From: a virus
Reading direction: 5' to 3' (one strand)
IMG/VR virus record: IMGVR_UViG_3300031669_000007
Coordinates: 1-64,000 of that record
DNA length: 64,000 nucleotides
The notes under the pieces are model-generated. The model did no database searches. It worked only from the letters and a program-made list of their open reading frames with translations, and was not told the DNA's origin. This document shows, in pieces, positions 6,191 through 62,353 of this stretch. Positions within the stretch are counted from its first letter, which is position 1. Each line of letters begins with the position of its first letter. The translations under genes and the position numbers were made by a program.

Positions 6191-6424
6191 TTAATTATCA
6201 ACAGTTGTAGAGGTTCCTACCCACTTTAATGCGAATAAAGTAGCATCTTCTTCATTGCTGAAAGTATATTGTTGGTGCCCAAAAACTTCAGACATCTGCC
6301 ATACTCCGCACTCAAAGTTGCCTACTTCGTTTTTAGTCCAGGCAGGTCCATATTGTTGTTCGCACCAATTCCATATTTCAAGCTGCTTGGGATAATACCC
6401 TCTATTTAAGGTAACTTTTATCAT
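6191..6424 (-). CDS. FxLRW-family small protein
   Basis: WCEQQYG...FSNEEDATLFALKW. Confidence 0.8.
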   Translation of the reverse strand: MIKVTLNRGYYPKQLEIWNWCEQQYGPAWTKNEVGNFECGVWQMSEVFGHQQYTFSNEEDATLFALKWVGTSTTVDN

Positions 6425-6425
6425 G

Positions 6426-6704
6426 TTATTGTTCCGGGCAAATTAATAAAAGCATCGTATAGACCTCATCGGGAATTTCAACTGTCCTAATAAGTGTATC
6501 GTTTTCAATTCGTGTAATAATTATCCCATACTTTTCTCTTACTTCATCATAGAACTCTTTAGTAAAGTCGCTATAATTGTATTTGGTTTTCAGAGAAGTA
6601 AGTAGTCTGGCCATACGTTCTGCTCGAACTTGCGCCTCAAGTCTTTCTTGATGATTTCTATATTCTTCATTAAAATAAAATATCATATTTCTCTTCCTGA
6701 CCAA
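6426..6704 (-). CDS. FxLRW-family variant
   Basis: IPDEVYTMLLL; resembles 57677-57940. Confidence 0.7.
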   Translation of the reverse strand: MVRKRNMIFYFNEEYRNHQERLEAQVRAERMARLLTSLKTKYNYSDFTKEFYDEVREKYGIIITRIENDTLIRTVEIPDEVYTMLLLICPEQ

Positions 6705-6934
6705 AGCAAAGAAAACATAACTGCATCTTTCTCGTGTCTAAATAAAAAGATTGACATCTTTAATGGTTTCTCCACGTAGGTTGGATTTACTTCCCAGTCG
6801 ATCCCCTCTTCGCCTATATTTTCTTCACACCAGTCACATCGAGGACTGGTCTCGGGGTATATTAACCTGGGAACAATGACTTTATATTTCATGACCACTT
6901 TAACAAACAGAGAGTTATGTTTTTTTCGGCGCAC
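6683..6934 (-). CDS. FxLRW-family small protein
   Basis: WCEENIG...FRHEKDAVMFSLLW. Confidence 0.8.
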   Translation of the reverse strand: MRRKKHNSLFVKVVMKYKVIVPRLIYPETSPRCDWCEENIGEEGIDWEVNPTYVEKPLKMSIFLFRHEKDAVMFSLLWSGREI

Positions 6935-7129
6935 CCTTTACAATTTGTATTGCGGGATAATCAATATCACCAGCAAAGTCTGCTCGGTAAAAGCCATCTA
7001 AGTTTACATACTTTTCAATATCACATTCTTTTGCCCACTTAAAGAATTCCTCTTTCTCTTTCTCAGTAGTAAAATCCTTGAGTTCAAGTCCAGTTTGTCC
7101 TTCACTTAAAGTAAGCGTGTTAATAATTT

Positions 7130-7360
7130 TCATGACCACCTCAACATAAAGAGCATAAGATCTTGTTCACTTGTAAAATCAATATATTCAGTTTTCTCAA
7201 TATTAATTGCTCGCCATTCTAATAATAGCTTAGAGATGATATCATTATCTACCATCTTATGCCCGAGACCCTCGTAGTAATCAACAAAGTTGTCCCACCA
7301 ACCATTGAACTCAAGACTTGCTCCACCATCCTCATATACAGAAATTCGTATCATGCCCAC
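7130..7360 (-). CDS. FxLRW-family small protein
   Basis: FTSEQDLMLFMLRWS; close paralogue of next two. Confidence 0.8.
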   Translation of the reverse strand: MGMIRISVYEDGGASLEFNGWWDNFVDYYEGLGHKMVDNDIISKLLLEWRAINIEKTEYIDFTSEQDLMLFMLRWS

Positions 7361-7578
7361 CTCAATAAAAACAGCGTGACCTCTTCTTCAGTGTTGAAAC
7401 CAATATAGGGACTGTTTTCGACGTTGATTATTCCATATTTCCCCAACGTCTCGGTCATGCCCTCATTTGTTACCATGTCAAACCCTTTTCCTCTATGGTA
7501 GTCAACGAAGTTAGTCCACCATCTATTAAACTGCCTAACACCAGTATTGTCACATACAGTCATCTTAATCATGACCAC
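7351..7578 (-). CDS. FxLRW-family small protein
   Basis: FNTEEEVTLFLLRWA. Confidence 0.8.
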   Translation of the reverse strand: MVMIKMTVCDNTGVRQFNRWWTNFVDYHRGKGFDMVTNEGMTETLGKYGIINVENSPYIGFNTEEEVTLFLLRWA

Positions 7579-7790
7579 CTCAACACGAACAGTAAGTAAT
7601 CTTGCTCGGTTTTAAAACTAATGAATTCAGTTTCTTCAATGTTTGTTGCGTTCCAATCCTCTAATGCTTTGTCAAGTCGATCACCATCTAATAGAAAACT
7701 GCTTAGTTCTTCGTAGTGGGCAATAAAATTTAACCACCATCGATGATTGCTACCTATAGAATCGTAAGCAAATACAGATACCTTAATCAT
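7569..7790 (-). CDS. FxLRW-family small protein
   Basis: FKTEQDYLLFVLRWS. Confidence 0.8.
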   Translation of the reverse strand: MIKVSVFAYDSIGSNHRWWLNFIAHYEELSSFLLDGDRLDKALEDWNATNIEETEFISFKTEQDYLLFVLRWS

Positions 7791-8050
7791 TTATTCCACC
7801 TCAACAAAAACAGCATAGCATCTTTTTCTTCTTTAAACATCCAAGTCAACGGAGTCACTGTAGACATTGTATTTAGGGATGTGGTTGTTGGATGCTTGTG
7901 GAATTCATAGACCACGTTTCTCTTATACCATACATCTCTCTCATAGCCAAATATTTCTTCGCACCATTCTTCGCAGGGTCGCCACTGTAGATTTATATCG
8001 GGCACGTTGTGATAAATCTCATACCACCCATTAACAAGTTCATGTTTCAT
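7787..8050 (-). CDS. FxLRW-family small protein
   Basis: WCEEIFG...FKEEKDAMLFLLRW. Confidence 0.8.
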   Translation of the reverse strand: MKHELVNGWYEIYHNVPDINLQWRPCEEWCEEIFGYERDVWYKRNVVYEFHKHPTTTSLNTMSTVTPLTWMFKEEKDAMLFLLRWNK

Positions 8051-8273
8051 TGTTATTGGGATTCACGTTTGTCCAGCGTAGTGAAAATATTACTGCATCT
8101 TCTTCTCTCCTAAACAGGTAGATGGAATTTCCCGGAGAAGAATATGTATCTATATCCCAATCATACTGTCGCCGACCAATACTTTTGGCGCACCAATCAA
8201 CTCTTACATTTACATCTATATTATCACGTAGATTTGATCGACGAAGTGTGGGCAATGTTATCTTATGTATCAT
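8040..8273 (-). CDS. FxLRW-family small protein
   Basis: FRREEDAVIFSLRW. Confidence 0.8.
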   Translation of the reverse strand: MIHKITLPTLRRSNLRDNIDVNVRVDWCAKSIGRRQYDWDIDTYSSPGNSIYLFRREEDAVIFSLRWTNVNPNNNET

Positions 8274-8485
8274 GAGAACTGTATAATAAACATCAAATAA
8301 TCTGCTTCGGTCGTAAACTCAAAATCAAGAACTAAATCTTTATAAGGTTTTTGAATAACTCTTACGATATAATCTCCTGGGTAGGTCGTATAGACAAAAG
8401 AACAGATTTCGTCTTCTTCGCTATGAGTGATAATAAAGTTGCCATATATTTCTGTTACTGCCTTCTGTATCTTATCTATTTGCAC
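8270..8485 (-). CDS. FxLRW-family (YPG subfamily)
   Basis: YPGDYIV...FTTEADYLMFIIQF. Confidence 0.75.
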   Translation of the reverse strand: MQIDKIQKAVTEIYGNFIITHSEEDEICSFVYTTYPGDYIVRVIQKPYKDLVLDFEFTTEADYLMFIIQFS

Positions 8486-8486
8486 C

Positions 8487-8729
8487 TTAAAAATCCTCTA
8501 TCAAAGTATCCGGCCACTTCATCAACATGATTACTATTAACTTTTCATCAACCCACAGACTATCGCCGCGGTTCTTTGGTTCTATCCAAAGATCCCTGTC
8601 TTGAGTCGTAATCCAATCATACACTTCATTAGAGGCACTGATTAGTTGGAACATATATTCTGTTCCTACACGTTGCTTTGGATTCGTGTTGTTTTCTCTA
8701 ACCCAATGTTTTATTATGGCTATGACCAT
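8487..8729 (-). CDS. FxLRW-family variant
   Basis: VDEKLIVIMLMKWP. Confidence 0.7.
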   Translation of the reverse strand: MVIAIIKHWVRENNTNPKQRVGTEYMFQLISASNEVYDWITTQDRDLWIEPKNRGDSLWVDEKLIVIMLMKWPDTLIEDF

Positions 8730-8941
8730 TTCAATAGATACATCATATAATCAGATTCTGATGAAAGCCATACTTCTGGTCGACCACCCCAGTCATGTTT
8801 AATCTGCCAACCACCGTTGCATGATGCTCTAACCCAAGACATCGATTCTACATGATGATGAGTATTACAATCACATTTATATTTCGGATCAAATACGGAT
8901 ATGTTCGTTGTAGTCGCTGATTGTGTAAAGAAAGAAGTCAT
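8720..8941 (-). CDS. FxLRW-family small protein
   Basis: LSSESDYMMYLLKWS. Confidence 0.75.
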   Translation of the reverse strand: MTSFFTQSATTTNISVFDPKYKCDCNTHHHVESMSWVRASCNGGWQIKHDWGGRPEVWLSSESDYMMYLLKWS

Positions 8942-8942
8942 A

Positions 8943-9182
8943 CTATAACCACCTTAACGAAAACAACATTGCATCTTTCTTGCAGTTAAATGAATATAAT
9001 CTTCCAGGTAAGTCCTCGGACCACAGTAAATGACAATCCCCAAATGTTTTATCGCACCAATCAACTATTTCAATAGAGTTTTCTTTGCGTTCGCGAAATC
9101 TAATTTCGAAGCGAAGACTGCCACGACGTGTTTCCGCCCTCATCCTAGCTTTCTCTAGTGTTGACATTAATGTGATCCCCAC
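8943..9182 (-). CDS. FxLRW-family small protein
   Basis: FNCKKDAMLFSLRWL. Confidence 0.8.
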   Translation of the reverse strand: MGITLMSTLEKARMRAETRRGSLRFEIRFRERKENSIEIVDWCDKTFGDCHLLWSEDLPGRLYSFNCKKDAMLFSLRWL

Positions 9183-9439
9183 TTCAATAAGAACATTGAA
9201 GCATCTTCTTCGTTAAAAAATACAAAATATTCCTTCTTGTTTTCTCTTACGATAATGATACCCTGCGTAAATAGCCAATCCTCAAATTTCTTCATACTGC
9301 CATGATGGCGACTGCTCCCGCCTTGGAAGTAGAATCTTTTCTTCTCTTCTATTTCTAATCCCAGAATCACTTGATTGTGATATTTAAGAAGTTTCTGAAA
9401 ATATGGAAATGCGTGAATTTTTATCATTGACACTTCCAC
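9167..9439 (-). CDS. FxLRW-family small protein
   Basis: FFNEEDASMFLLKWG. Confidence 0.8.
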   Translation of the reverse strand: MEVSMIKIHAFPYFQKLLKYHNQVILGLEIEEKKRFYFQGGSSRHHGSMKKFEDWLFTQGIIIVRENKKEYFVFFNEEDASMFLLKWGSH

Positions 9440-9732
9440 TTCAAAAGAAAGTAAGAGATAAGAGACTCGTGTTTTTTACTAAGTTTTATCTCAAGAATCG
9501 AAAGATTCTTTTTGTTTAACCTATAATCCCAATCAATGCCACGAATACCGGCTATTTCCATTAGGTCATCGCGATACTGAATATATGACATCAAGTCATC
9601 ATCCGAATATAAAACACAAATAGTCTTTGTTCTGGTCGTTAGCCACCATATACGTTGTTTAAGAGAACCATAGTCAACTAAGTATTTCTTAGTTTCGTTG
9701 TAAAAAATTGATATAGTTGATAACTTAGGCAT
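9424..9732 (-). CDS. FxLRW-family variant
   Basis: HESLISYFLLKWK. Confidence 0.7.
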   Translation of the reverse strand: MPKLSTISIFYNETKKYLVDYGSLKQRIWWLTTRTKTICVLYSDDDLMSYIQYRDDLMEIAGIRGIDWDYRLNKKNLSILEIKLSKKHESLISYFLLKWKCQ

Positions 9733-9735
9733 TAA

Positions 9736-10410
9736 CTATTCTGCCATTTCCCAAGCATTAGATGTTTTGCACCATTTAAAAGATACTGTCTTTTCTTTTT
9801 CCAACTCACTCTTTTTCTTATCCGTTATGGATTTTACGAATGGCGGAAACCACTGTGCTTCGCAGTTGTTAACACTATCCCAAGTGCCGAATCCATTGTT
9901 TATCCATAAATGGAACTTCATTATTTTTTTCTCTTTTACTGCTGCTCGAGCCAAATAGTCTGCTCGGCAATTATCTATTATTTGTTTGTGTCCTTTTATC
10001 CAGTGCATCTGTGATAACGCGAGCCAACGCATCAATTTTATCACTGCATGTTTGTCGTTTGGACAGAAGAATTTTTGAAATAACGTGAGACGTTTGTATA
10101 TGTTTGCTCGATGATTACTCTTGTTTGCTCGTTCCAAATGAAATCCTGAATACGCAACCCACGAGCAGTCTGTGTAAAAACTTGTTTGCTCTGGATCAGC
10201 ATTATGTTTTTCTGCGTGAAGAACTGCATGATAAAATGCAAGAAGTTCGTAAAATCCGCCAGCCTGTCGTTTTTCCATGCTGTAATCTACGAACCCGTTT
10301 ATCTCTACTGACTTTCCGGTTAGGTGTCGCGCAACAACTCCCCAACCCTGACGGATAGTGTTTCCTATTTTAGATTCGCTTCCATCAATGTAAAAAGTAA
10401 GTTTTGACAT
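9736..10410 (-). CDS. rnhA: Ribonuclease HI-like protein
   Basis: FYIDGS, ELLA, YTDC, WIKGH, NCRADYLA match RNase HI catalytic motifs. Confidence 0.85.
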   Translation of the reverse strand: MSKLTFYIDGSESKIGNTIRQGWGVVARHLTGKSVEINGFVDYSMEKRQAGGFYELLAFYHAVLHAEKHNADPEQTSFYTDCSWVAYSGFHLERANKSNHRANIYKRLTLFQKFFCPNDKHAVIKLMRWLALSQMHWIKGHKQIIDNCRADYLARAAVKEKKIMKFHLWINNGFGTWDSVNNCEAQWFPPFVKSITDKKKSELEKEKTVSFKWCKTSNAWEMAE

Positions 10411-10439
10411 GATTGAATATCCCTTGACTTAATAACGCT

Positions 10440-10467
10440 ATTATACACTCTTTTGCTGAAATGTCAA
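10440..10467 (-). promoter_or_regulatory. Early sigma70-type promoter for RNase H and array A
   Basis: TTGACA-N16-TATAAT. Confidence 0.85.
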
Positions 10468-10469
10468 GC

Positions 10470-10507
10470 AAAGAAAACCCCAGAATAATCAACTACTTAT
10501 CTGGGGT
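10470..10507 (-). terminator. Rho-independent terminator
   Basis: ACCCCAGA...TCTGGGGT stem followed by TTTCTTT. Confidence 0.75.
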
Positions 10508-10529
10508 AAACCTACATCTTAGGAGATGT

Positions 10530-10793
10530 TTAGTGAGATCCTGACCTGTTATCGCGTATAAAGTCTTGCATTCTTTCGAGTTCTTCGACAGTTTCCCAAT
10601 CTAACTTTTTCATATCATTTGAATCAAGAAGTCTAACTGACAAGTCCTCGTTAAACTCTAGCAGTGAACCACATTTGTAGCAAATGGATAAATCGCCTTC
10701 ACGAGGAATTGCTTCTCCGTCTGTCCCAGTTGCTGCGTTTAATGTCGCGCCGCATCCAGGACATTCGTGATCGTCAGTGAGCGTAGTAACCAT
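10530..10793 (-). CDS. Zinc-ribbon protein
   Basis: CPGC and CYKC pairs. Confidence 0.65.
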   Translation of the reverse strand: MVTTLTDDHECPGCGATLNAATGTDGEAIPREGDLSICYKCGSLLEFNEDLSVRLLDSNDMKKLDWETVEELERMQDFIRDNRSGSH

Positions 10794-10806
10794 CTTATCT
10801 TTTATA

Positions 10807-11925
10807 TTAGAAGGCATAAGCGTTGTATGTCTGTACGATCTTGGTGAAAGTAACTGTTGCGCCATCATCGTTAGCGTAGACGAATGTTCCTGCGGCCGCA
10901 TCAACTTTCTTCAAGTTAAGATAAGTGAAGTGGTATTCATTGTCTTGATCTTCGCGTCCAACCATACTTGCTGCACCATTTTCTGGTGTTTCGTCCCAGC
11001 ATTCATCGATGTTTTCAGCAGTGTCTGTATCAACTTTAGCGATGCTGAATTTTTCAGAAGTGATTGGGTTACCTCTCCATTCAGCAGGAGCAACTTCGTT
11101 GTCGGGCACCTGAACGCCCTTAACTTTCAGCGACACTTTGTAGCGGCCGCCGTCGCCAGCTTGTGGCTTCGCGTTAAGAAGTTTGATTGCTTCTTGCGCT
11201 GTTTCTTTGTAGCGATTCATTTCTTCGCAAAGTGCCTTGAGCAAGTCGAAGTTGAACTGCGAGAACATTGTGCTAATGCGGCAAACATTGTCGATCTGTC
11301 CTTGGTCATCCAGGTTTTCTTTGCAATACTCAATGATGAAATCAACATCAAGCCCAAGAAAGTCAAGCATGTAAAAAATACGACCAGGACGATTACGCAT
11401 ATTTTCGTCAATGCGCCACTTGTCGTTGCAAGTAAGCACGAACAGTTTCTTGGACGGAAATACGCCGTCGAGCAACGTAAGAATTGCTGTTTGCTCGTTG
11501 CTGTCATACACTTTCTCAAATTCATCAAACAAAATCATGCAGGGCTGCTCGATGGATTGGATAAGCGAATTAAAACCGTCGCCGGAGAAGGGAGTGTTGA
11601 TGATGATTGTTGGCATATTTTGCTCTGCTGCTTTAACAGACAGCATTTTGGCAAGAAGAGTTTTGCCAGAACCTTTTTCTCCAGCAAGCATCACGCCAGT
11701 AGAGTTTGGGCGAGTATTGAAAGTGTTGATCATGCGATCAGCATTTTTCAGAGTGTCGCCATAAATCTTTTGTGACATATCAAACGTGTCAACTATTTCA
11801 AAGAAAAAGTTACCAAACGGATCTTGTTTGATAATGTAATTACCGACCGGCAAGACTTTGTGCAAATCAAGCATTTCTTCATTTGCTGCGCGGAAGGTGT
11901 TGCCGTTCTTCATAAACATTGTCAT
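10807..11925 (-). CDS. AAA+ ATPase
   Basis: Walker A GEKGSGKT, Walker B ILFDEFEK, sensor LTCN, Arg finger NRPGR. Confidence 0.9.
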   Translation of the reverse strand: MTMFMKNGNTFRAANEEMLDLHKVLPVGNYIIKQDPFGNFFFEIVDTFDMSQKIYGDTLKNADRMINTFNTRPNSTGVMLAGEKGSGKTLLAKMLSVKAAEQNMPTIIINTPFSGDGFNSLIQSIEQPCMILFDEFEKVYDSNEQTAILTLLDGVFPSKKLFVLTCNDKWRIDENMRNRPGRIFYMLDFLGLDVDFIIEYCKENLDDQGQIDNVCRISTMFSQFNFDLLKALCEEMNRYKETAQEAIKLLNAKPQAGDGGRYKVSLKVKGVQVPDNEVAPAEWRGNPITSEKFSIAKVDTDTAENIDECWDETPENGAASMVGREDQDNEYHFTYLNLKKVDAAAGTFVYANDDGATVTFTKIVQTYNAYAF

Positions 11926-12005
11926 CGTGTTGTCTTTCTATTGAGTTAATTAAATTGTGTAACTACTATACTATGGTTCTTGCTATTTTGCAACTATTTC
12001 GGTTG

Positions 12006-12182
12006 CTATGATGTGCCTTGCCAGCGTAACGTAAAGAGCAAGGCGTCGGCATCTATCTCAAAATTCATGTAATATGCTTTTCTATACCACCGACCCGCAC
12101 AGTGAAAATCACACCATACCTTATATTCATATAGACGTGTCGTCCAATCTCCGGCACCCCAATCTCCTATATCAACTATCAT
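12006..12182 (-). CDS. FxLRW-family small protein (58 aa, absent from ORF track)
   Basis: Hand-translated: MIVDIGDWG...WCDFHC...FEIDADALLFTLRWQGTS. Confidence 0.75.
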   Translation of the reverse strand: MIVDIGDWGAGDWTTRLYEYKVWCDFHCAGRWYRKAYYMNFEIDADALLFTLRWQGTS

Positions 12183-12321
12183 ATTATCGCCGTCGGATCA
12201 AAGTATGGACTAAACAATTTCAAAAATGCTGCTCTTACAAGAGTTAAAGAAGGAACTCACCCATCTCAAATTTTAGTATCCTGTATTGTTTGTCACAAAG
12301 CAATTAAGGGAGTAGCTAACC

Positions 12322-12648
12322 TTACGAAATACCATCAGCACAATTAGTTATTCGTTCTTTTAAATTAGAATAAAAACTGTCCAGTTCACCACCAAACTTC
12401 CCGATCAGATGTGGCATACCAAAAAGAACCGTTGCGTAATCTTCTTTATCCCATGCTTCGATTACTGCTTGATGTAAATCAGTGAGTCTTTTCATGTCGG
12501 CCATTTCTTCAGGCGGAACCGATGCTGGATCTACGATGCAGTAGGCAGTTTGGTTGTTTCCTGCAATCTCAAATGTCTCGAGTTGAAGAACGACATATTT
12601 TTCTTTTATCTCATCAAAATTTTTGCAGTTGCCAAATATTATATGCAT
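12322..12648 (-). CDS. Hypothetical protein
   Basis: AGGA SD and TAAATA box at 12670-12675. Confidence 0.65.
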   Translation of the reverse strand: MHIIFGNCKNFDEIKEKYVVLQLETFEIAGNNQTAYCIVDPASVPPEEMADMKRLTDLHQAVIEAWDKEDYATVLFGMPHLIGKFGGELDSFYSNLKERITNCADGIS

Positions 12649-12690
12649 TTATTATCCTTTAGTTAAATATATTTAGTCTACATTGCGTGG

Positions 12691-12698
12691 TATAAATA
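12691..12698 (+). promoter_or_regulatory. T4-type late promoter box
   Basis: TATAAATA 4 nt before ATG 12703. Confidence 0.7.
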
Positions 12699-12702
12699 CT
12701 TT

Positions 12703-19580: not shown

Positions 19581-20936
19581 TTATACAGAATTTCGATTTC
19601 CTTTCAGAATACGCATTATTGCCTCTTCTTCGGTAAGTGAGTCTGATTCTCTAACAATCATCGTGGTTGGGAGTTTAACTCTTTCACTTATTATTTGTAG
19701 AGTTATATATCTGGGTTCTACTGCTATTATTTGGCAGACGTTGTCAGCCCAATAAATCCAAGACCCTATACTCAATTGTGTTTCTTTATCAATTATCACT
19801 CTTTGTATGACCTTTGAGAATGAGCATAGCTGCTTCTTCTTCTGTAATTACTGTCATTTCTGATGATCGATAGGTGCTTAGTCTGAAGTCGTAATTAAAT
19901 CCTGCTCCACGTATTATAAGAATATCCTCAACGTTGATAACCTTACAAACATAGTTGGACCACATAACCCAGTCTCCGACCCTAATAGAAGTCATCTATT
20001 TGCACAGCTCTTTAAGAGAAAAATAGTAACTTCTTCCTCAGTTAGCACTTCTACATCTTTAATTCTACTTTGCGGTATTCTAACAACAACTGATTCATAA
20101 GGACGAAGAAGCATCTCAAGTCTGGTTTTATCTACGGCAACAACTGTTCCAAGATAATTATCATATCCAAGAATATTGCCGATCTTAATTTTTTTTCCGT
20201 TTTTATCAGTTGGCATTTTTTAATAAATACATTGTTGTTTCTTCTTCAGAAAGCATTATTAGTTCTTTCTCTGGGTGGTGTGACCACTGTAATCCGACAG
20301 GGAACAAATATTCTTCTTTAAAAGGACGAGTCAGAACGATTGTGGTTCCTTCATACTCATCTAATCCCTGAACAACAAAACATCGTCCCGCAGTGTTTAA
20401 TACTAAACGACCAATAAGTATTTGATTACCATTTATATCGTACGCTATCATTTTTTAACAGTTCAAAGACTGCCTCTTCTTCGGTCATTGCAATGATATC
20501 AACTGCATTTTGCCAACATTGCAGGGTTCCACCTTTTAATTTAAGTAGCACAGCATCTGTTCTTATTTTGTATACAGAAGTCTTCAGTGATCTAATTTCA
20601 ACAACATCAAAGACACCATAATCATACATTATGCCACCGCCGAGAACTGAGAAGGCGCAATCGCCAACTTCTATGTTGCGGCCGTTTTTATCCTTCATTT
20701 GCTTGCCTCTTCAAGATCCACATGATCATGTCTTCTTCTGGCAAGAGAACAAGAGAGTTGCAAGGTTGATTTTTCTTTTTAGTAGTAGGCGACGGTTCTC
20801 TTAGAAAGATAATTGCATCTCTTCCTTTGAATCTGAATCCCATAATCTTATAAATGTTGTTGAATGAAACAACATGGTCGCCGACTTTAAGAGGGCGACC
20901 AATTATATCTAAATACTCTTTTGGTGATTTATCCAT
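19581..20936 (-). other. Array of six small paralogous proteins (D-x-x-G-x-x-I-x-x-G-D-like N-terminus, EE(E/D)xxxxxLK C-terminus)
   Basis: ORFs 19581-19799, 19789-19995, 19992-20216, 20206-20451, 20426-20698, 20688-20936. Confidence 0.8.
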
Positions 20937-21169: not shown

Positions 21170-21197
21170 ATTATACACTCTTTTACCGAAAAGTCAA
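21170..21197 (-). promoter_or_regulatory. Early sigma70-type promoter
   Basis: TTGACT-N16-TATAAT. Confidence 0.85.
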
Positions 21198-22999: not shown

Positions 23000-23278
23000 T
23001 TATTGCCAGCGTAAACTGAACATCAGCATATCTTGCTCGTTCTCAAAGTAGTAAATTATGTCGCCCAACTCTGCACCATCAAATGTGCGGTCAACAATAA
23101 CTTTGTCTGTTTTCCAGTCATATCTGGTAGCAGGGGAATATTCTTCTGACGAGTGCTTCCCCGAACAGCATTCGTATTGCCATACCCTACGCGGGTCACG
23201 GTTAACGTGATCAGGGTGACGAGCAAGACAGATAAACCAGTCATATCGTAGAGTAGGACCAACGCGTCTTGCGATCAT
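23000..23278 (-). CDS. FxLRW-family small protein
   Basis: FENEQDMLMFSLRWQ. Confidence 0.75.
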   Translation of the reverse strand: MIARRVGPTLRYDWFICLARHPDHVNRDPRRVWQYECCSGKHSSEEYSPATRYDWKTDKVIVDRTFDGAELGDIIYYFENEQDMLMFSLRWQ

Positions 23279-24579: not shown

Positions 24580-24807
24580 TCACATCCATTTTAATTTAAA
24601 CACCACTGCTTCTTCGTCAGAATAAAACCTAAATTTAACACGGTCAGGTTGTTGTCCGTCTGCCCACCCAACCATCCACGATACGCCATTGTATTCCATT
24701 TTGCCAAATACATTTTCGCACCATTCATAGATTTTAATCATATGCTCGTATTCTTCGTTTGTCCCACGCTCAACAATAAATTCTGTCATAATTTTATACC
24801 TCCCCAA
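24580..24807 (-). CDS. FxLRW-family small protein
   Basis: WCENVFG...FYSDEEAVVFKLKWM. Confidence 0.8.
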   Translation of the reverse strand: MGRYKIMTEFIVERGTNEEYEHMIKIYEWCENVFGKMEYNGVSWMVGWADGQQPDRVKFRFYSDEEAVVFKLKWM

Positions 24808-25064
24808 CGCAATGCAAATAATGTTGCATCGTGTCCATTGACAAAGCAGTAATACAAAATATTATTCTCATCTTCGTCTTCGTCTATTTTCCACTCATCA
24901 TATGACGTGGCTTCTGTTGTCCATAACTCATGTCTCTCGCCAATGTTTTCTTCGCACCATATAATTCGGACATGGGTGCGATCGGCAAAACGAACGCTTG
25001 GCACACCTACCCTAAAGATCATTTCTTTTTCCGATTTTGCCATTATACAGTTACGTTGGCCCAC
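24786..25064 (-). CDS. FxLRW-family small protein
   Basis: WCEENIG...FVNGHDATLFALRWG. Confidence 0.8.
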   Translation of the reverse strand: MGQRNCIMAKSEKEMIFRVGVPSVRFADRTHVRIIWCEENIGERHELWTTEATSYDEWKIDEDEDENNILYYCFVNGHDATLFALRWGGIKL

Positions 25065-25279
25065 CGCAATGCAAATAACATTGCATCTTGTTCATTGAGA
25101 AACATGAAAAGAGTTTTCCGATCGTTTCCTTCTCCAAGAGGTAACTTAATTGTCCACGATTTATATATTTCGCCGACGTGTTCTTCGCACCATTCAACTC
25201 TTATCATCGAGTTATTTGAAAAAATAAATTTTGGCACACTTACCGCAAACTTTAGATCTTGCATGTCTTGTCGGTCCAT
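25043..25279 (-). CDS. FxLRW-family small protein
   Basis: WCEEHVG...FLNEQDAMLFALRWA. Confidence 0.8.
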   Translation of the reverse strand: MDRQDMQDLKFAVSVPKFIFSNNSMIRVEWCEEHVGEIYKSWTIKLPLGEGNDRKTLFMFLNEQDAMLFALRWANVTV

Positions 25280-25515: not shown

Positions 25516-25953
25516 ATTATTCCTTTGCCCACTCTCTTGGGTTAGTATAAATTTTCTTAATTGACTCTGGGTATTTTAGTAGCAACATTGACTCAATGCC
25601 GTCTATGCGAACAAAATATACGCCGTCGTGCTGCGCGTAGTAGTCATCCTCGCCGAGAAGACTCAATATCCAGTCACATATTTCTGTGCGATTTTTCATC
25701 TCATATTGACTCTTAATTCTTAGGCCAATGAAGCCGCAACTAAGAAGTTTCTTGGGAGTATTTCTAATTTTTAACACTATTCGCCTTTTTTGATTTGTTC
25801 AAGACGAGCCAAAACTTCTTCAAGTATGTCAACCTTTGCTTCACATTTTGCATACCACTCCTGCTCCTGATATGAACCAGGATGAGCATAATCATCAATA
25901 CGAGATTTTACATACTCAATTGCTTTATCTATTTTTTTTGCCACAATGACCTC

Positions 25954-26490
25954 TTACTTTGCTAAACGTTTTTGCAACCAGTACGGAACACCGTTGTTTC
26001 GACCACAGCCAAGTTTCTTGCCGAGTTTTACCAACTTGCCTTTTGGCCAATGTGCATAAACTCGTTTTTGAAGCAAGAATTTGTCGTAGTATGCTTCGCC
26101 GCTATAACGCAACTTATGATTAAGGTAATTTCGAGGGCCGATATTGTATGATTCAACTGCGCCGCGAACTGAGTGTGTCAGTTTGTAATATTCGCGAAGT
26201 TTTGCAATTCCCTGAGCAATGTTTGTGTGAATGTTGAAGGATCCGTTTTGGACTTGCATTAGTCCATTGGACGATTCTCTTGCAGTATGGTTCCTAGCGA
26301 GTGGGTTCATTGAAGACTCGTTACGCATAATTGCGAAAACATCTGATGCTCTTGGGAAATCACTGTAAGCAAGGCGCGTCACAGTTTTTGTTATCTCTCT
26401 GTTTGGAGTGATCTCGCCGCAGGCATATACTGATGCTGTCATTGCTGTCATCGTGAGGGCAAGTGCTAAGAATATCTGACTTCGGTTCAT
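25954..26490 (-). CDS. Exported lytic transglycosylase (SLT domain)
   Basis: Signal peptide; AIMRNESSMNP, GLMQV, ESYNIGP. Confidence 0.85.
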   Translation of the reverse strand: MNRSQIFLALALTMTAMTASVYACGEITPNREITKTVTRLAYSDFPRASDVFAIMRNESSMNPLARNHTARESSNGLMQVQNGSFNIHTNIAQGIAKLREYYKLTHSVRGAVESYNIGPRNYLNHKLRYSGEAYYDKFLLQKRVYAHWPKGKLVKLGKKLGCGRNNGVPYWLQKRLAK

Positions 26491-26518: not shown

Positions 26519-26546
26519 ATTATACGCTTTCGGTAAGAAAAGTCAA
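26519..26546 (-). promoter_or_regulatory. Early sigma70-type promoter
   Basis: TTGACT-N16-TATAAT. Confidence 0.8.
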
Positions 26547-53706: not shown

Positions 53707-53735
53707 TTGACATTCTAACCGAAAGAGTGTATAAT
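53707..53735 (+). promoter_or_regulatory. Sigma70-type promoter
   Basis: TTGACA-N17-TATAAT, 6 nt before ATG 53742. Confidence 0.85.
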
Positions 53736-53741
53736 AGTCTT

Positions 53742-54002
53742 ATGATACATGTCAAAACACTAGTCGAGGATTTCCCGCATCTCGTGCATAAAGCACGGAA
53801 AATCTGGTGCATCGAAACCTTTGGGAAACCATTTGGCGGTAAGCCTGCACCCGGAAAGAATTCTGAAACTAAGTGGGTAGACTGTCGCTGGTCACAGTAT
53901 AATACATATTTTCGGTTTAAGTATGAAGAAGATGCAATGATATTCATACTTAGGTGGGGCGGAGAAGTTAAGAATAAAGTTAAATGGAAAGTAAAAGAAT
54001 GA
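53742..54002 (+). CDS. FxLRW-family small protein (plus strand)
   Basis: WCIETFG...FKYEEDAMIFILRWGG. Confidence 0.8.
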   Translation: MIHVKTLVEDFPHLVHKARKIWCIETFGKPFGGKPAPGKNSETKWVDCRWSQYNTYFRFKYEEDAMIFILRWGGEVKNKVKWKVKE

Positions 54003-55291: not shown

Positions 55292-55293
55292 AA

Positions 55294-55814: not shown

Positions 55815-56192
55815 ATGGAAGAAAACGATATTAAACGTATTATGGCAGACAAGCCTTACCTGTCACTATTGACGTATGGCGGCAATGATTATTTGGGTAT
55901 TATTCAGAACATCGACGACACCATTACCACAATCTATGATTTTGGTTCTCTCAAAACAGAAGATCAGAAGATTGTATTCTTAGAGTTGGCTGAGATATGG
56001 TGGATGGAGAGTAATCGACTTGTCCCAATCAATGTATTCTTGCGCGTAGAATGGGCAATCTTCCGTCCTACACTAAAGACACTAAACTCTAAGGATGTTG
56101 ATGTTAAGCTAGGTCCTCATCTAAGTCTTAAAGAGATGGCTGCTAAGAAATCAAAACGTAGATCAATTACTCTTGTTCGTCGTATGCAGTAA
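55815..56192 (+). CDS. Late hypothetical protein
   Basis: TAAATA 5 nt upstream; WWMESNRLVPINVFL. Confidence 0.7.
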   Translation: MEENDIKRIMADKPYLSLLTYGGNDYLGIIQNIDDTITTIYDFGSLKTEDQKIVFLELAEIWWMESNRLVPINVFLRVEWAIFRPTLKTLNSKDVDVKLGPHLSLKEMAAKKSKRRSITLVRRMQ

Positions 56193-58172
56193 ACGGCGAT
56201 CCATACTTAATAACTGCCAATGGATAGGTTTCATCAGTAAACTCTAATGAGTCGAGAGACTTATTAAACTTCCCTTTCCCCAAGTTTGCTTTACAATTCC
56301 ATTCGTTTTCTAACCAGCTTAGCCAGTCAGGTATATCACCGTCGTATTGAGCACGGTGTTGATCATTTATGATTTTCTTCCAATTATACGGATATGGATT
56401 AGGACCGCTAAACGATATTTTCATAATGCAGGTGGTCCATACTTAAGAACTGCTAAGAGATAGTTATCATCCTCAAAGATTAGTGCAGCTATGCATTTAT
56501 CATCACCAAATTTCCCCATCTCTACTTTACATTTCCATTCGTTTTCTAACCAGTTTATCCACTCAACTAAATTACCGTAATACATTATGCTGTGTTGATC
56601 TGAGATAACCATAGCCCAGTTAGTTGTCTTTTCATAATTATCTTTAAACGATATTTTCATTGTTTGCATACCTCAATAATAAAAGTGTGTAATGTTCATC
56701 ATCTACTTCTATCCTCGTAATTTTTTCATCTCTGATAGTGATTACAATTCCTAGCGTATTATATGCCCACTCTATAAATATTCTCTCGCCTACAGATGAC
56801 TCAAGGTCTTCTTTTGGTAGAGAATTTCCAATGGATTCCATAAAGTCATCCCATACACCAGCTATAGGCGGCCTGTCAGGAACATTGTCTAATGTATCAA
56901 TAGAAAAGAGTATCATGCGGCATACTGTAATAAAAACATTGTTAATTCTTCATCATCTACTGTTACGGCATAGATAGCGTTTTCTTCTTTATCTTTGCCA
57001 ATCTTTCTTCTTTTATAGATGACCTTGCTTGATGGTATTCTTTCAGTCAATGACTGAACATATTCTTCTGTTGTTACGTCTGTTCCATCGTCGAATACTT
57101 CTCTAAAATACCTGGCCGCTGCTCTCTTAAAGGACTCGGCGTTGTGGTCGAGATATTTTCCATCTACAGCTTCAAAACTAATTGTTATCATGGCGGAAAC
57201 CTTATTAAGAGCATAGTATAGGCAGAGTCCTCTACATCTATTCCGGCAATATGCCCAGGAAAAAGTCCGCCCGGATCGTTAAGAACTGTTATCTGCCAGG
57301 TATCTTTAAGCCAGGCACGAAACTCTTCGTATTCATTGGCATGACCAATTCCCTTCCACGGGGATTCTTCTCTAAGTGCTCGAAGTATCTTAGCCCAATG
57401 AATAGGCGAAGTGCCTCTAATTGGAAAATATCCGGCATAATCAACGATGCGATCAGTGAAAGATACTATCATTCTCCGAACCTCAACATAAAAAACATTG
57501 CGTCCTTCTCCTCTTTGAAAGCATAAATGTGATACTTTAAGAAAACTACCGTCCAATCTTCGTTTTTCTTCCCCATACAAGTATTAAGCCAAGCTAAACG
57601 ATTACAGTAGTCTTGATAGGTATGCTTCTTATTAGCTCTAATAATATAGGGAAACCTGGCGTTATAGGGTAATTTTTCAATCATATCCGTATTTTAAGAG
57701 TAGCATGGTAAAAACTTCGTCGGGCAAATCAATATATTCAAGGTGTCTAACCATTGTATATTTTTCGGAAAACATAGCATCTATGCCGTGTTCTCCTCTG
57801 ACATAATTGTAGAAATCATCATCAAAGAAGCCAAACCCGGCATCATTTCTTAAATTAATCAAGATCTCTGACATCTTCCGACGAAGAGCATACTCTTTTT
57901 CACCGGGTGCAGGAAGGTGGTTATTGTATATTATTCTCATTCAAATATTTAAGTAACAAAAATGTATATTCTTCATCATTGACCTCTAATCCTATAATGT
58001 TCGAATTGATATCATCATTTTTAAATGTTAAATTGATTGTCCATTTTTTGTTAAGCATTGATATAAAGCCCTCTTTATCAATTTGATCGCTTTTACTGGT
58101 CACTTTATACTCTTCCGCAAGTCCGCGCAATACAGCAAAACAGGGGTGACGGTTAGTTGGTTTTATTTTCAT
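56167..58172 (-). other. Array B: eight small FxLRW-variant genes (DxxYTxxLL(K/R)Y subtype)
   Basis: 56167-56424, 56421-56669, 56644-56916, 56913-57191, 57188-57472, 57469-57684, 57677-57940, 57921-58172. Confidence 0.85.
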
Positions 58173-58785
58173 TCTTAAATTCCCACAACGAGTTTTTCTC
58201 TTGTTCTGCTATTAAATTCATATGGACCACAACAAGGTGAGCATATCCAACAGCATGTGCTTTCTTGAAGGTGTATCCATCGTCTGTTTTATCCCATATT
58301 GTTTTTGCAATCTCTGCCCAACTCTTTCCTTGCAAGTGTTTCTTTCCTGGACGGATCAATGCTAGGAACATAGCCATGCGTGGTATTGAATTGATTGGTT
58401 CCGGCAGCTTGCTTATCGTTTCGTGATAATTGCCAATGTGTATTAACTGCTCGCAAAAGTCTTTCTCAAGCAATCGTGTCCACGGCGGATCAGTAAGCAT
58501 CAGTTTCAACAAGTGTGCCTCTGATTGAACTTTTTCATATACTGATACATTGAGTAGGTCTACTTTAAAATACCCGCGTTCTTCCGCTGCCTTATAGTCA
58601 ATTGTTGCCAAGTTATTTACATCGTGCGGTATGTCTGTAAAATATACACCGGTCGCATGTTTACTAAGAGCTGCATCTGTTCTTATCATGCTCGCGTTGA
58701 TATGCTTGAGATGAGCCAAAGCAGCATCTCTGCTGCCAAAGTCTATGTCGATGTCACCTTTAAATTTTTTAATTTCTTCGCTCAT
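58153..58785 (-). CDS. Minimal DNA polymerase III alpha (DnaE)-like protein
   Basis: GDIDIDF, KHATGV, GYFKVDLL, ALIRPG, YTFKKAHAVGYA. Confidence 0.85.
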   Translation of the reverse strand: MSEEIKKFKGDIDIDFGSRDAALAHLKHINASMIRTDAALSKHATGVYFTDIPHDVNNLATIDYKAAEERGYFKVDLLNVSVYEKVQSEAHLLKLMLTDPPWTRLLEKDFCEQLIHIGNYHETISKLPEPINSIPRMAMFLALIRPGKKHLQGKSWAEIAKTIWDKTDDGYTFKKAHAVGYAHLVVVHMNLIAEQEKNSLWEFKNENKTN

Positions 58786-59037
58786 GCTGTAATAAACTCC
58801 AACGGACGTGGTTCTATTCTTATTTCTACGGGAAACCTCGGTAAACTCTCGTCTAACTCTTCGTCACAGTATATACCGTCAGCTACAATGTTATCACCTA
58901 AGAAATAAACAAACTTCTCTATCGACGGCCGCGATGCTCCTGAGTCAAATATAATAAAGTATATACGGGTCAGGATTCTTCATCGCTGCTAAAATCTGCT
59001 TTGAAAATCTTGCCGTTACGTTGGTTACTCCATTCAT
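58782..59037 (-). pseudogene. Frameshifted small gene
   Basis: ATGA overlaps at both ends; 256 bp; frames join near TATATA at 58960-58965. Confidence 0.55.
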
Positions 59038-60046
59038 TGCTGATACCTTAGAATAAACATTGTTTCGTCTTCTGGCTTATCAAATACTAACTTTGCTTTA
59101 AATGCCATTCTATGAAAATCGTAGTATTCTTGTACGACATAATTCCCAGGATAATTTTTTTGCATTTGTTCTGCCACATATAGTATTGTATCCTCTTTGC
59201 CAGGATTGAATGTTTTCTCTGAGTAGATCTTATCTAAATATCTGTTATAGTTCATGCTTTATTCTCAATGACGATTATCTTCCCCACCGCAGTGAGAACA
59301 ACGTCGCATCTATATCGTTAAAAAATCTAATGCCTGATCTTCCTGTCCCATCGTTTGCTTCCCCTATAGTCCAACGCTGTTCATCTGGAAGCGGAGGATT
59401 AGGCATGTTTTCCTCTAACCACAAGCCTATATCTATCTCGGACTTACCCTTTGTTGCCGAGAAGTAAAATTCTAAATCAACCATTATGCCCACTTCAATG
59501 CGAACAATATCGCATCCTTCTCGTTGTCGAAGCACCACACTACTTCTCCTTCTTTGACACCTGCGTATGTAATCATACTGCTATCGTCATCATCAAGACA
59601 AGTATTTTCTTCGCACCACTTTGCCATCTCTTCCATTTTTGCATTTCGAGACTTTCCCCAAATTGAGTCTAATATAGTTGATACTCTGTGGTCACCAAAC
59701 AACGAATCTTTCTTCATGCTAACTCCACTTCAATAAAAACAAGGTAAACTGTTCTTCATCCATATATGCAGTCCACAGGGTTGATCCTTTGTATATTTCT
59801 ACGGTTAGACCAAATTTTCTATCGAGTAATCTCTTAATTTCTTCTATGCTTATTAACGCAGTAGAAAACTTGTTTGCGTTCATCTCAGATCTAAAGCAAT
59901 CATAAAACTTTGGATAATCCTGGAAATCAAACTGTATCATTTCCACCTTAATAAGAAAAGCATCAAGTCTTGTTCATTAACAAAATAATATGTATCACCA
60001 TTTACTATATACCAATCTGACTCTTTAAGATTGTCTTTCAACCAAT

Positions 60047-60121
60047 CATATCTATTTTCGAAAAGATCGCTGTTCGTTTTTCCATATCTATTTTCGAAAA
60101 GATCGCTGTTCGTTTTTCCAT
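60047..60121. repeat. In-frame 36-bp tandem duplication
   Basis: GKTNSDLFENRY twice, exact at DNA level. Confidence 0.95.
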
Positions 60122-60607
60122 GCAGCCTTGTCTTAAAGGGCCAAATCTTTTTATTCAATTCTCTCATAGCCAACGCAATGTAAACATTGTAGCATGAATT
60201 GGGTCACGAAAGTAGAAGATCATGCCGTCTCTATACCACATTTTTTCACCGAAAGTCTCCGTGCAATAGGGTTCATATTTGAATCCCTCTGACATAAATG
60301 CTCTTGTTGTCATCTCAACTCGAACCCAAAAGATTTCTTTCCACAATAGATGCAACGGCATACTTGTTATTGTTGTTAATTTATCGAACCAAGTCTCTTT
60401 TCTCATGTCAGCTACACTGTAAGATAAACAATGTTAGATCTTCTTCTGTATTAAATATTATCGAAAATACCAAGTCTTCTGCGACTTCAACCACATAGTT
60501 TCCTGGATATTGAGATTTGATGTAACTTTCAACTTTTTCTTGTAGTCTTGTATCTATGGGTTCTCCTCGAAATCGAGTAGAAACGTCTTTATATAAATTA
60601 TCTAATA

Positions 60608-60807
60608 TCATTGCCATCTCAACCTAAAAGCAATGCGTCGGGTTCGTATTTGAACCAAAAAAGAACAGAGGTTTGGAACGTGATTGGGTTTGTGACTCCT
60701 GCAGTTTTAAACCAATTATCCTCGCCTACTCCGTGATTTAACCACTCAACTATTTTTTCTCTGTTTTCCGTAACGCAGTCGGATGACAGTTGAACCTTAT
60801 ATTCCAT
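60608..60807 (-). pseudogene. FxLRW member with 1-nt frameshift in its motif
   Basis: Reads DALLLG*; one extra T in the run at 60626-60629 gives DALLFRLRWQ*. Confidence 0.7.
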
Positions 60808-61246
60808 TGTTACCCATCCACCGTAACGCGAAAATAGTTGCGTCCTCTGACTGACTAAACCAGAACCGTGTTCGACCAACTGAGTATGATCCATCGCTCT
60901 CATATTCCTCGCACCATCTCTGCATTTTACCAAACTCTTCGGGCATCAAGTGTTCAGCTATAGTCACTCTATACCAAGATCCTATCTGTTCCATATTTAA
61001 TGCGCCAGAATAGTTCATCTGCTGTGCCTTAATAAGAATAAAGTAGCATCTTCGTCATTTTGAAAATATACGCTAGAATAGCTAGATGTGTATTCAAGAT
61101 TGCCTTGATATTTTATATTGAACCAAGAAATCACAAATGAATATACCTCGGCGTTAGAAAAATCTTTACCCGCAACAATATCACATTCTCGACTGAATTC
61201 ATTTATAATTTTGTTAAGATCAAAGTTAGTAATTTTTGTCCCCATC

Positions 61247-61414
61247 TTATGACCACCGTAATAAAAATAAAGTCGCGCCTTGTTCACTCTCAAAATACCA
61301 ATCTTTACCACAAGCAATAAATGTATCTCTCCCGAAGTTTTTTATTGCCCATTGATATGCTGTATGCCAGGATGTATTATCCCACAATGACAAACCAGAA
61401 ACAACGTGTATCAT
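61247..61414 (-). CDS. FxLRW-family small protein (55 aa, absent from ORF track)
   Basis: MIHVVSG...WAIKNFG...FESEQGATLFLLRWS. Confidence 0.8.
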   Translation of the reverse strand: MIHVVSGLSLWDNTSWHTAYQWAIKNFGRDTFIACGKDWYFESEQGATLFLLRWS

Positions 61415-61654
61415 ACTAACTCCATTTCAGTAAGAACATAACAAGATCTGAGTCAGTTGCAAATTCCAACGATACTGTTTCTATCCAGGATGTACCGATT
61501 CCTTCATGCAGCACTCTATTTACCTTTACACTGTTTTCTTTTTCCATATATTTAATGTGGTCGTCTGGCACAAGGTGATAATACTGATGTCCGCCCTCAT
61601 TTCTATAAGCGTTTCGAAACGGAGTAGATATCTTTTCGATGGGGATTACTATGC

Positions 61655-62353
61655 TCATACTTTGGCCTCTATCAACACAGATTTAATAAACTCGGTGTCG
61701 GCAACATAGTCTTTGAATTTGCGATTCCAAAAGTCTGGGTCAATAAATCTGAAGATCAATGTGACTTGTTCTTCGTTTAGTCCAGATAAGAATGCTATGC
61801 CGCTATCGCAGTTATATAGAATCCACGGAGAGATACGACCATTGACTATCATATTGCATATCTTATTGGGTGCGCCTTCTCGGAAGATATTGTTAAACTG
61901 TTTGTCTGTATCGTCTGCCCAGTTCTGCATCTCAGTGAATGAACGCTCTAATGCATCATTGGGATGTTCTTTACGCAGATAGTCGTGTAAGTATTCGTCG
62001 TAGAACGATTCCTTCGTCCATTGATCTAACTTTTTGTTTTCTTTAATGATCCACGCAATAAACATAGGCACATTGATTGCGCGTATTTGCACCAAGTATT
62101 GACCAAACTTAACAAATGCAGAATAGTATGGCGAATCTACAAAGTCGGCATAGGTTTTGGTCTTTGCTGATCCCTGTGTCATCTCATAGAATTTGAGATA
62201 TGCTTGCATACCAAGTCTTACTCCTGATTCGTTCTCTTGCTGATATCTGCGTTTCTTTTCACACATATGAACAGACAGCGTAGAGAGTTTTCTAAAACTC
62301 TTCTCGCAGTATTTACAAGTATATTTTTCTACTGTTGCTTCAATATTTGCCAT
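61655..62353 (-). CDS. Zinc-finger-containing phage protein
   Basis: YTCKYCEKSF...HMC; GRISPW. Confidence 0.7.
   Translation of the reverse strand: MANIEATVEKYTCKYCEKSFRKLSTLSVHMCEKKRRYQQENESGVRLGMQAYLKFYEMTQGSAKTKTYADFVDSPYYSAFVKFGQYLVQIRAINVPMFIAWIIKENKKLDQWTKESFYDEYLHDYLRKEHPNDALERSFTEMQNWADDTDKQFNNIFREGAPNKICNMIVNGRISPWILYNCDSGIAFLSGLNEEQVTLIFRFIDPDFWNRKFKDYVADTEFIKSVLIEAKV

Follow-up and report, generated by a model that had tools for sequence, protein, structure and literature searches.

What are the many tiny, divergent proteins that one virus encodes in tightly packed arrays, and what could they do for it? This question is raised by the first 64 kb, here called the window, of the single 92,630-bp virus record IMGVR_UViG_3300031669_000007, in which about 40 small open reading frames (ORFs) with similar C-terminal ends are found. 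CheckV rated the record as 26% complete, and therefore the whole genome is probably jumbo-sized. The best overall explanation of the data, to which we give roughly even chances, is that these ORFs belong to an old, virus-specific family of ~70-residue proteins, which are encoded in coupled arrays and form a repertoire of binders.

To define the family members in the window, three kinds of matches were compared. A loose regular expression for the C-terminal motif matched 22 of 619 ORFs, versus a mean of 0.43 and a maximum of 2 after residue shuffling, while a hidden Markov model (HMM) of the last 22 residues, searched against the whole record, found 26 ORFs at E<1e-5, all of which lie within the window. 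With a full-length profile derived from 138 outside homologues, 28 matches were obtained in this record at E<=0.01. The resulting tally consists of 30 core members of 55-92 amino acids (aa), eight members of a sister branch ending in DDExYTMLLLKY, and three ORFs with merely weak C-terminal resemblance (8487, 9424 and 25517; genes are referred to by the first coordinate given in Table 1), and one further array ORF, 6915, is without the motif. Eleven core members are located in 6191-9439 (array 1) and 12 in 59034-61658, and the others are at 12006, 23000, 24580, 24786, 25043, 53742 (plus strand) and 57469. Seven of the sister-branch members lie in 56167-58172, and the eighth is at 6426-6704. A few ORFs extended at their start into the upstream gene and were trimmed (60619-60807, 61015-61245, 59275-59484, 24786-25043, 57188-57472 and 53742-54002). 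The first-pass annotation of this DNA had counted 41 such proteins, which agrees with 30 core, eight sister-branch and three doubtful ORFs, and the tally falls at the places that it had listed; the overlapping stop and start codons that it described were seen at the window junctions as well. It had also noted that subfamilies recur in different arrays, and indeed the YPGxY subgroup is present at 8270, 59034 and 60408, and the DxxYTLLL type at 6426 and in the 56-58 kb region. The nearest relative of 25043 is 6683, and the closest kin of several other members also sit in another array.

The extent of the shared domain was defined using a profile of 26 strong members, which was searched against 1.84 billion representative proteins. 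This search gathered 2,875 clusters at E<=1e-3 (50% identity clusters of public protein data), nearly all of which are 60-100 aa long and matched along the whole length. The top match, the 890-aa P0010, is a spurious repeat protein and was discarded. In a sample of 645 members gathered from viral contigs, conservation was concentrated at a few positions: W36 (97%) and C/L37 (76%) in helix 1, W48 (69%) in strand 2, F59 and F61 (87%) in strand 3, and D66, A67, L/M69, F70 (93%), L72 (94%), R/K73 (83%) and W74 (94%) in helix 2. The remaining positions carry almost no information, no catalytic-type polar residues are conserved, and 70% of the proteins terminate one residue past W74. An AlphaFold2 (AF2) model of one core member (P0011, gene 25043), based on 138 homologues, has the order beta1-alpha1-beta2-beta3-alpha2, with a mean per-residue confidence (pLDDT) of 79.7 and a predicted template-modelling score (pTM) of 0.67, and its final helix is the most confident block. 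Judged from their sequences, all core members are homologous across the whole domain, and not merely in the C-terminal helix, which the first-pass annotation had taken as the only shared part; W36, C/L37 and W48 are conserved too. The check for one fold that it had suggested, by profile HMM and structure prediction, pointed to a single domain whose core is constant while the rest varies strongly. Both helices and two of the strands contribute conserved residues, and these are mostly aromatic or aliphatic; the C-terminal strand and helix, the W-C/L helix and the strand-2 tryptophan therefore most likely form the hydrophobic core of the predicted fold, a two-layer alpha/beta domain.

The distribution of the family was analyzed using a degenerate DNA pattern for the sequence E-D-A-x-x-F-x-L-R-W. 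The scan of IMG/VR gave at least 118 loci, and among the matches listed 115 of 118 hold profile-confirmed members, with about 620 ORFs in total, in which overlapping frames are partly counted twice. Among these matches the loci are mostly coupled arrays, with as many as 21 genes packed into 8.4 kb, and the contigs that carry them range in size from 4 to 518 kb. When the same pattern was applied to prokaryote genomes (596 Gb), only 3 of 87 loci were genuine, and these are on two sphingomonad contigs (L183 and L177) and one small Bacteroidetes contig (L196) of metagenome-assembled genomes. These loci may represent prophages or phage contigs drawn in by binning, and could give a hint at hosts. 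The family is essentially virus-only. Five large records contain 14, 19, 17, 27 and 36 matches at E 0.001, the first two of these being complete genomes of 369 and 518 kb, while the 28 matches in this 92.6-kb fragment were obtained with the same profile at the looser cut-off of E 0.01.

Among cultured phages, three homologues were found in the Pseudomonas jumbo phage PA5oct (EST35_0247, EST35_0274 and EST35_0275, with profile E values of 1e-8, 3e-5 and 1e-4). These proteins of 71-85 aa match profile positions 24-86 of 93, and they are conserved in the close relatives Paride, Callisto and MIJ3 (genus Wroclawvirus). Like the window members, they have neighbors such as ribonucleotide reductase, thymidylate synthase, DNA polymerase III, ClpP and MazG; in contrast to the window, there are three copies per genome and no long arrays, and all are annotated as "hypothetical protein". 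A tblastn search with four outside members against 50,697 GenBank phage records gave nothing real, and the family is also absent from the nearest relatives identified via the AAA ATPase, which are G002, Microcystis phage Mel-JY01 and Microbacterium phage Pumpernickel.

The strong conservation of the last helix could also be explained if it were an exposed docking element, by which all paralogs plug into one partner, such as a MoxR-like AAA ATPase or a Clp protease, with the variable body acting as an interchangeable adaptor. The first-pass annotation had proposed such a helix. Consistent with this explanation, D66 and R/K73 of the helix are conserved, and L/M69 and L72 form a further hydrophobic stripe in addition to A67, F70 and W74, while the sister branch ends in a similar helix and an unrelated six-gene family (19.5-20.9 kb) in a looser version of it. 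A MoxR-like AAA ATPase and its VWA partner (DUF2201) are found near arrays in 6 and 5, respectively, of the ~115 listed loci, and an AAA ATPase adjoins array 1 in the window. However, the conserved residues of the helix are mostly aromatic or aliphatic, they are conserved jointly and co-vary with the upstream tryptophans W36 and W48, and the helix is the part of the model predicted with most confidence. In addition, the conservation of the end is partly tied to the DNA, which serves as the ribosome-binding site of the next gene, as described below. The association with neighbors is weak: the AAA ATPase, the VWA partner, a metallophosphoesterase and a C2H2-like 240-aa protein each recur near arrays in 5-8 of the ~115 listed loci, which shared backbone ancestry explains equally well as a functional link. 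Longer fused forms were not found, which is weak evidence on the same side. Hence, a common docking role of the helix appears improbable.

Searches for known relatives agreed with the first-pass annotation, which could assign no known function to these proteins. Pfam-A and PHROGs v4 gave no match for 10 window members and the 138 outside homologues except scattered singles far below the cut-off, NCBIfam 20 gave no family match for 26 window members, with stray single matches far under the cut-off, and no catalytic signature was seen. No description of such arrays or of the tiny-protein family was found in the literature. PDB sequence and fold searches returned no anti-defence relative; one weak sequence match in PDB, to a viral non-structural protein 1 chain (E 0.002), was treated as a chance event. 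Using Foldseek against PDB, the best E value of the core model was 0.34. Exhaustive structural comparison gave the TyrA ACT domain as the best neighbor (Z 6.2, root-mean-square deviation 3.5, 73 residues aligned), followed by RRMs and EF-G domains with Z 5-6 and by weak KH and PII matches, and these Z values fall inside the background range of the tool. By contrast with PDB, among predicted viral structures the core model is matched with probability 1.0 by dozens of 55-90 aa "uncultured Caudovirales phage" proteins, all of them uncharacterised, and the source annotations of the homologues read "hypothetical protein"; neighbor clusters in the ESM Atlas are 96-100% viral and unnamed.

These structural neighbors raise the alternative that the proteins are nucleic-acid- or ligand-binding regulators with an RRM-, ACT- or KH-like sandwich, tuning phage replication, transcription or translation. 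The gene neighbors RNase H, ribonucleotide reductase, primase, helicase and polymerase would fit such a role. As in the ferredoxin-like sandwiches (ACT, RRM and PII), the two helices of the core model lie on one face of an antiparallel sheet; on the other hand, the model has three predicted strands and is devoid of the final strand of the beta-alpha-beta-beta-alpha-beta arrangement, and no sequence motif is common to the family and these domains. The Z values are typical of common arrangements, neither a GXXG nor an RNP motif is present, the majority of members are acidic, and apart from R/K73 there are no conserved basic or exposed aromatic positions. Also the sister-branch model has no PDB neighbor above Z 3.9. 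We therefore regard such regulators as quite unlikely.

The relation of the sister branch to the core was analyzed separately. The AF2 model of its member 57921 (pLDDT 83.4) has the order beta-alpha-alpha-beta-beta-alpha, which is one helix more than in the core. In comparison with type I KH domains the order of elements is the same, although GXXG was not seen in the alignment, the best Z was 3.9, and no KH chain was among the PDB neighbors. The viral structural neighbors of this model share none with those of the core model. Iterated searches from the sister branch, however, gathered full-length core-profile matches (e.g., L049_5286) and window gene 59719-59946, and cross-matches at E 1e-2 to 1e-4 tie it to 9167, 60408 and 61416. 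Because such intermediate sequences link the two profiles, we assign the sister branch, with moderate confidence, to the same superfamily as a distant lineage. The six-gene family mentioned above consists of tandem coupled paralogs of 68-90 aa at 19581-20936 (minus strand), with an N-terminal DKNGxxIxIGDxV and a C-terminal helix LTEEEAxMxLLK; it has no Pfam match, a near-consensus sigma-70 promoter lies at 21170-21197, and our guess is that its N-terminal stretch is a small beta-barrel. It was rejected as a branch of the family, because the alignment is confined to the last 18 columns and the two families stayed separate in iterated searches.

The junctions between the array genes have a feature that is new here: the conserved last codons double as the ribosome-binding site and the overlapping start of the next gene. 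In 572 of 642 family genes the next start lies within -13 to +12 nt of the stop, and the commonest layout is ATGA. The typical gene end AGG-TGG-TCA-TGA (R-W-x-stop, AGG-TGG-NNA-TGA) includes the ATG of the next gene, and the stretch AGGUGGUC within it is complementary to the 3' end of 16S rRNA, GAUCACCU, with one G-U pair. The codon choice is strongly biased, since Arg73 is encoded by AGG in 62% of cases versus 9% for other arginines of the same genes, and Ser75 by TCA in 65% versus 19% elsewhere. Window starts located after AGG TGG or CGG TGG ends have a pairing energy with the anti-Shine-Dalgarno sequence of -10 to -12 kcal/mol, as compared to a mean of -2.6 kcal/mol and a 5th percentile of -6.9 for random 15-mers, while stand-alone genes have the classic AAGGAG. 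The use of AGG decreases from 66% in coupled genes to 34% in 60 genes without a close downstream start, whereas W is conserved in 94% of coupled and 98% of uncoupled genes, and R/K in both classes. Because AGG use falls in uncoupled genes while the residues stay conserved, the protein accounts for the retention of the amino acids at the gene end, and the ribosome-binding site of the next gene for the choice of codons. The dual role is seen as a codon bias, and an effect on translation would be expected to follow from it.

The history of the arrays was assessed by comparing the paralogs with each other and with those of related viruses. The highest identity between paralogs is 46% at the protein level, and only the trio 7130, 7351 and 7569 resembles a local duplication. 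The DNA identity in the conserved end is 60-80%, and long identical stretches are absent. For 19 of the 30 core members a better match was found among 622 sampled members of other phage contigs than among their own paralogs. Three relatives (L228-L230) share a backbone that is 62-87% identical and consists, in the same order, of homologues of 65205, 63419, 61655, the polymerase-related gene, 54425, the primase and the helicase. Scanned with profiles in the same way, these relatives and the window differ in the slot before the polymerase-related gene (2, 6 and 0 core members versus 11 in the window) and in the slot after it (2, 3 and 3 sister-branch members versus 7); the slot members of the relatives are non-orthologous and only 30-39% identical to any window member. 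More distant relatives have 0-2 members, and G001, with core genes about 50% identical, has 16 family matches without one-to-one orthologues. As the paralogs are at most 46% identical, the arrays are not the product of recent amplification; they are fast-changing slots filled from an old, diverse gene pool.

The copy-number comparison in relatives, which the first-pass annotation had suggested, thus gave 2+2, 6+3 and 0+3 versus 11+7 in the window, and its concept of a gene accordion holds in part, because the copy number does vary between relatives at the same slot, but the degree of paralog identity does not fit recent amplification. Gene accordions of poxviruses and other large eukaryotic DNA viruses are recent, near-identical amplifications of host-interaction genes. 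The window arrays resemble them in the copy-number variation at fixed loci, and differ from them in the low identity of the paralogs, which are often closer to the copies of other phages. Another similar system is that of the hyperplastic regions of T4-type phages, where small non-essential ORFs between conserved genes differ among close relatives, and where promoter early stem-loop (PeSL) elements, which are intergenic promoter-plus-terminator units, flank unrelated ORFans; these regions have sigma-70-like early promoters, and shuffling via the short conserved cassette was proposed (Arbiol et al. 2010, PMC2839356). Variable slots between conserved genes and sigma-70-like promoters are common to both systems. 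In contrast to PeSLs, the window ORFs are homologous and overlap without intergenic space, so that the conserved junction consists of coding sequence and a ribosome-binding site. No PeSL-type units were found between the array genes, promoters being present only at operon heads and terminator-like sites being absent from the coding strand. A lineage-specific expansion is also known in the jumbo Bacillus phage G, which has roughly 35 zinc-ribbon copies (Iyer et al. 2021, PMC7824862). Both cases involve tens of copies of a small non-enzymatic domain in a large phage genome, while the window family has a different fold without a metal site, and is present in thousands of clusters and many phage lineages.

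The rapid turnover of content at fixed slots, the better matches of most core members in other phage contigs, and the self-contained junction could also suggest that the cassettes are largely selfish or near-neutral, spreading by recombination within and between phages with little benefit to the phage. This explanation has a low probability, because reading frames and fold-defining residues are retained across the 2,875 clusters, the complete 369-kb and 518-kb genomes retain 14 and 19 copies, and no nuclease or other mobility function is present.

The expression of the arrays was considered using promoter predictions. In the record, 21 sites agree with the sigma-70 promoter consensus at 11 or 12 of its 12 positions, versus 4.3 in shuffles; most of them are on the coding strand and have spacers of 16 nt, and it seems that the phage relies heavily on the host RNA polymerase. 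In addition to the promoters in Table 1, one at 64400, just beyond the window, is located upstream of the operon that crosses both 56-61.7 kb arrays. Near-perfect sites in the window include those at 2429, 5114, 10467, 34013 and 53707. Because the promoters fit the sigma-70 consensus, transcription of the arrays by the host RNA polymerase would be expected in the early or middle phase of infection. A role of the ORFs as structural or assembly proteins of the virion is very remote, since the arrays are located in replication regions, downstream of sigma-70 promoters, and the three PA5oct homologues are without the electrospray tandem mass spectrometry (ESI-MS/MS) note that several neighboring virion-detected proteins carry; no point supporting it was found, apart from the fact that jumbo phages have many unassigned virion proteins.

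The explanation that we prefer is that of a binder repertoire. Because nearly all positions outside the fold core vary and no catalytic-type residues are conserved, the proteins could be non-enzymatic binders, and a repertoire of them that is made in the early or middle phase of infection and serves host takeover or counter-defence is a tentative proposal to which we give somewhat less than an even chance, by analogy with small early phage proteins. Each small cytoplasmic member would bind a different host or competitor target, every gene would supply the translation signal of its successor, and turnover would occur through gain, loss and exchange of whole cassettes. Several points weigh against this explanation. 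The idea of binders is based on the absence of catalytic residues and on the analogy just mentioned, and there is no common DNA-mimic signature, since the pI is below 6 in 21 of 30 members and the others are basic. The burial of the last helix is read from the residue pattern and the model confidence, and the timing of expression from the promoter consensus; the PA5oct paper gives no gene-level expression timing for the family homologues. As to the sister branch (56-58 kb and 6426), its direct hhalign comparison with the core gave a probability of 2.5-5%, yet in register, so that its inclusion depends on the intermediates.

The genes around the arrays include those of replication and nucleotide metabolism. 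Almost all window genes are on the minus strand, the G+C content is ~38%, and the recognisable genes are those of two lytic transglycosylases, RNase H, an AAA ATPase (48% identical to its counterpart in Microbacterium phage Pumpernickel), both ribonucleotide reductase subunits, a DnaB-like helicase, a primase and a short polymerase-related protein. Both SLT-type transglycosylase genes (5436-6071 and 25954-26490, minus strand) adjoin an array and lie directly behind a near-consensus promoter. At 61655-62353 (minus strand), immediately upstream of the 59-61.7 kb array, lies the gene of a 232-aa protein whose N-terminus weakly matches a C2H2-like zinc finger, and homologues of this protein adjoin arrays in at least seven other viral loci, and also in L228-L230. 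Among the members themselves, 60619 ends in ALLLG, without the usual R-W end; its longest ORF (60619-60933) overlaps the upstream member 60797-61018 by 137 nt in another frame, and its true start is likely the ATG at 60807. The gene 59937-60173 contains a perfect 36-nt tandem duplication at 60047-60118, repeating 12 residues (GKTNSDLFENRY), which is a very recent in-gene event in the variable part. Beyond the window, a weak family member that ends in FILRWS (E about 0.004) is present at 83823-84083 of the record (minus strand).

Table 1. Array genes, doubtful ORFs, RNase H gene and promoters of the window, with the basis of each assignment
Feature	Positions	Strand	Basis or remark
Core member, last gene of array 1	6191..6424	-	A2 profile E 4e-18
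Sister-branch (A3-type) member within array 1	6426..6704	-	aligns with 56-58 kb group
Core member	6683..6934	-	profile E 1e-19
Array ORF without motif, doubtful membership	6915..7139	-	E 0.2, iterated profile only
Core member, WWxNF subgroup	7130..7360	-	profile match; end AGG TGG TCA TGA
Core member, WWxNF subgroup	7351..7578	-	42% identity to 7130
Core member, WWxNF subgroup	7569..7790	-	46% identity to 7130
Core member	7787..8050	-	profile E 2e-11
Core member	8040..8273	-	profile E 2e-18
Core member, YPGxY subgroup	8270..8485	-	C-terminal HMM E 3e-6; 32% identity to 60408
Array ORF, weak C-terminal resemblance only	8487..8729	-	profile not significant
Core member	8720..8941	-	profile E 8e-7
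Core member	8943..9182	-	profile E 3e-13
Core member	9167..9439	-	core profile; cross-matches sister-branch profile too
First array ORF, ends FLLKW, doubtful membership	9424..9732	-	E 5.6
RNase H gene	9736..10410	-	Pfam
Consensus sigma-70 promoter TTGACA-16-TATAAT	10440..10467	-	12/12; before RNase H gene and array 1
Solitary core member adjoining AAA ATPase gene	12006..12182	-	profile E 5e-5; C-terminal HMM E 1e-7
Core member	23000..23278	-	profile E 2e-9
Core member	24580..24807	-	profile E 3e-13
Core member, start trimmed	24786..25043	-	profile E 1e-17
Core member, modelled protein (P0011)	25043..25279	-	profile E 9e-21; AF2 pLDDT 79.7
Doubtful member, WIL..G helix and MLLLKY	25517..25777	-	E 0.06, iterated profile
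Near-consensus sigma-70 promoter	26519..26546	-	11/12; ahead of 25.9-24.3 kb operon
Consensus sigma-70 promoter	53707..53735	+	12/12; directly before lone plus-strand member
Core member	53742..54002	+	profile E 4e-16
Five sister-branch members (56167, 56421, 56644, 56913, 57188)	56167..57472	-	alignments A3 and A5
Core member embedded in sister-branch array	57469..57684	-	profile E 2e-15
Two sister-branch members (57677, 57921)	57677..58172	-	57921 modelled, AF2 pLDDT 83.4
Core member, YPGxY subgroup	59034..59255	-	E 1e-4, iterated profile
Core member, start trimmed	59275..59484	-	profile E 3e-10
Core member	59484..59717	-	profile E 1e-13
Intermediate member linking core and sister branches	59719..59946	-	iterated A5 E 4e-8; iterated A2 E 0.003
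Core member with internal 36-nt tandem duplication	59937..60173	-	core profile
Core member	60164..60406	-	profile E 5e-6
Core member, YPGxY subgroup	60408..60617	-	C-terminal HMM and full-length profile
Core member, truncated helix end ALLLG	60619..60807	-	profile E 5e-7
Core member	60797..61018	-	profile E 1e-11
Core member, start trimmed	61015..61245	-	profile E 2e-6
Core member	61247..61414	-	profile E 1e-8
Core member, first gene of 59-61.7 kb array	61416..61658	-	C-terminal HMM E 8e-7

Large phages spend many genes on small proteins without an assigned role. With thousands of clusters and tens of copies per genome, this virus-only family, which is absent from all curated libraries searched (Pfam, PHROGs and NCBIfam), is one of the larger small-protein families seen in big phages. 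A conserved protein end that is at the same time the ribosome-binding site of the next gene is a concrete and checkable case of dual coding, and such a junction may explain how arrays can grow and be shuffled while translation persists. A bolder possibility, which we consider doubtful, is that the arrays are a combinatorial library of small phage-encoded inhibitors, each neutralising a different defence or host factor, with the junction acting as a plug-and-play cassette. If this were true, the dual-coding cassettes could be gained, lost and swapped between phages without breaking the translation of the operon, and the arrays would constitute a general, undescribed counter-defence system of uncultured jumbo phages. 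The presence of three copies in a culturable Pseudomonas phage, together with the clear fold core and the fast-changing slots, makes the role of these small early proteins directly testable.

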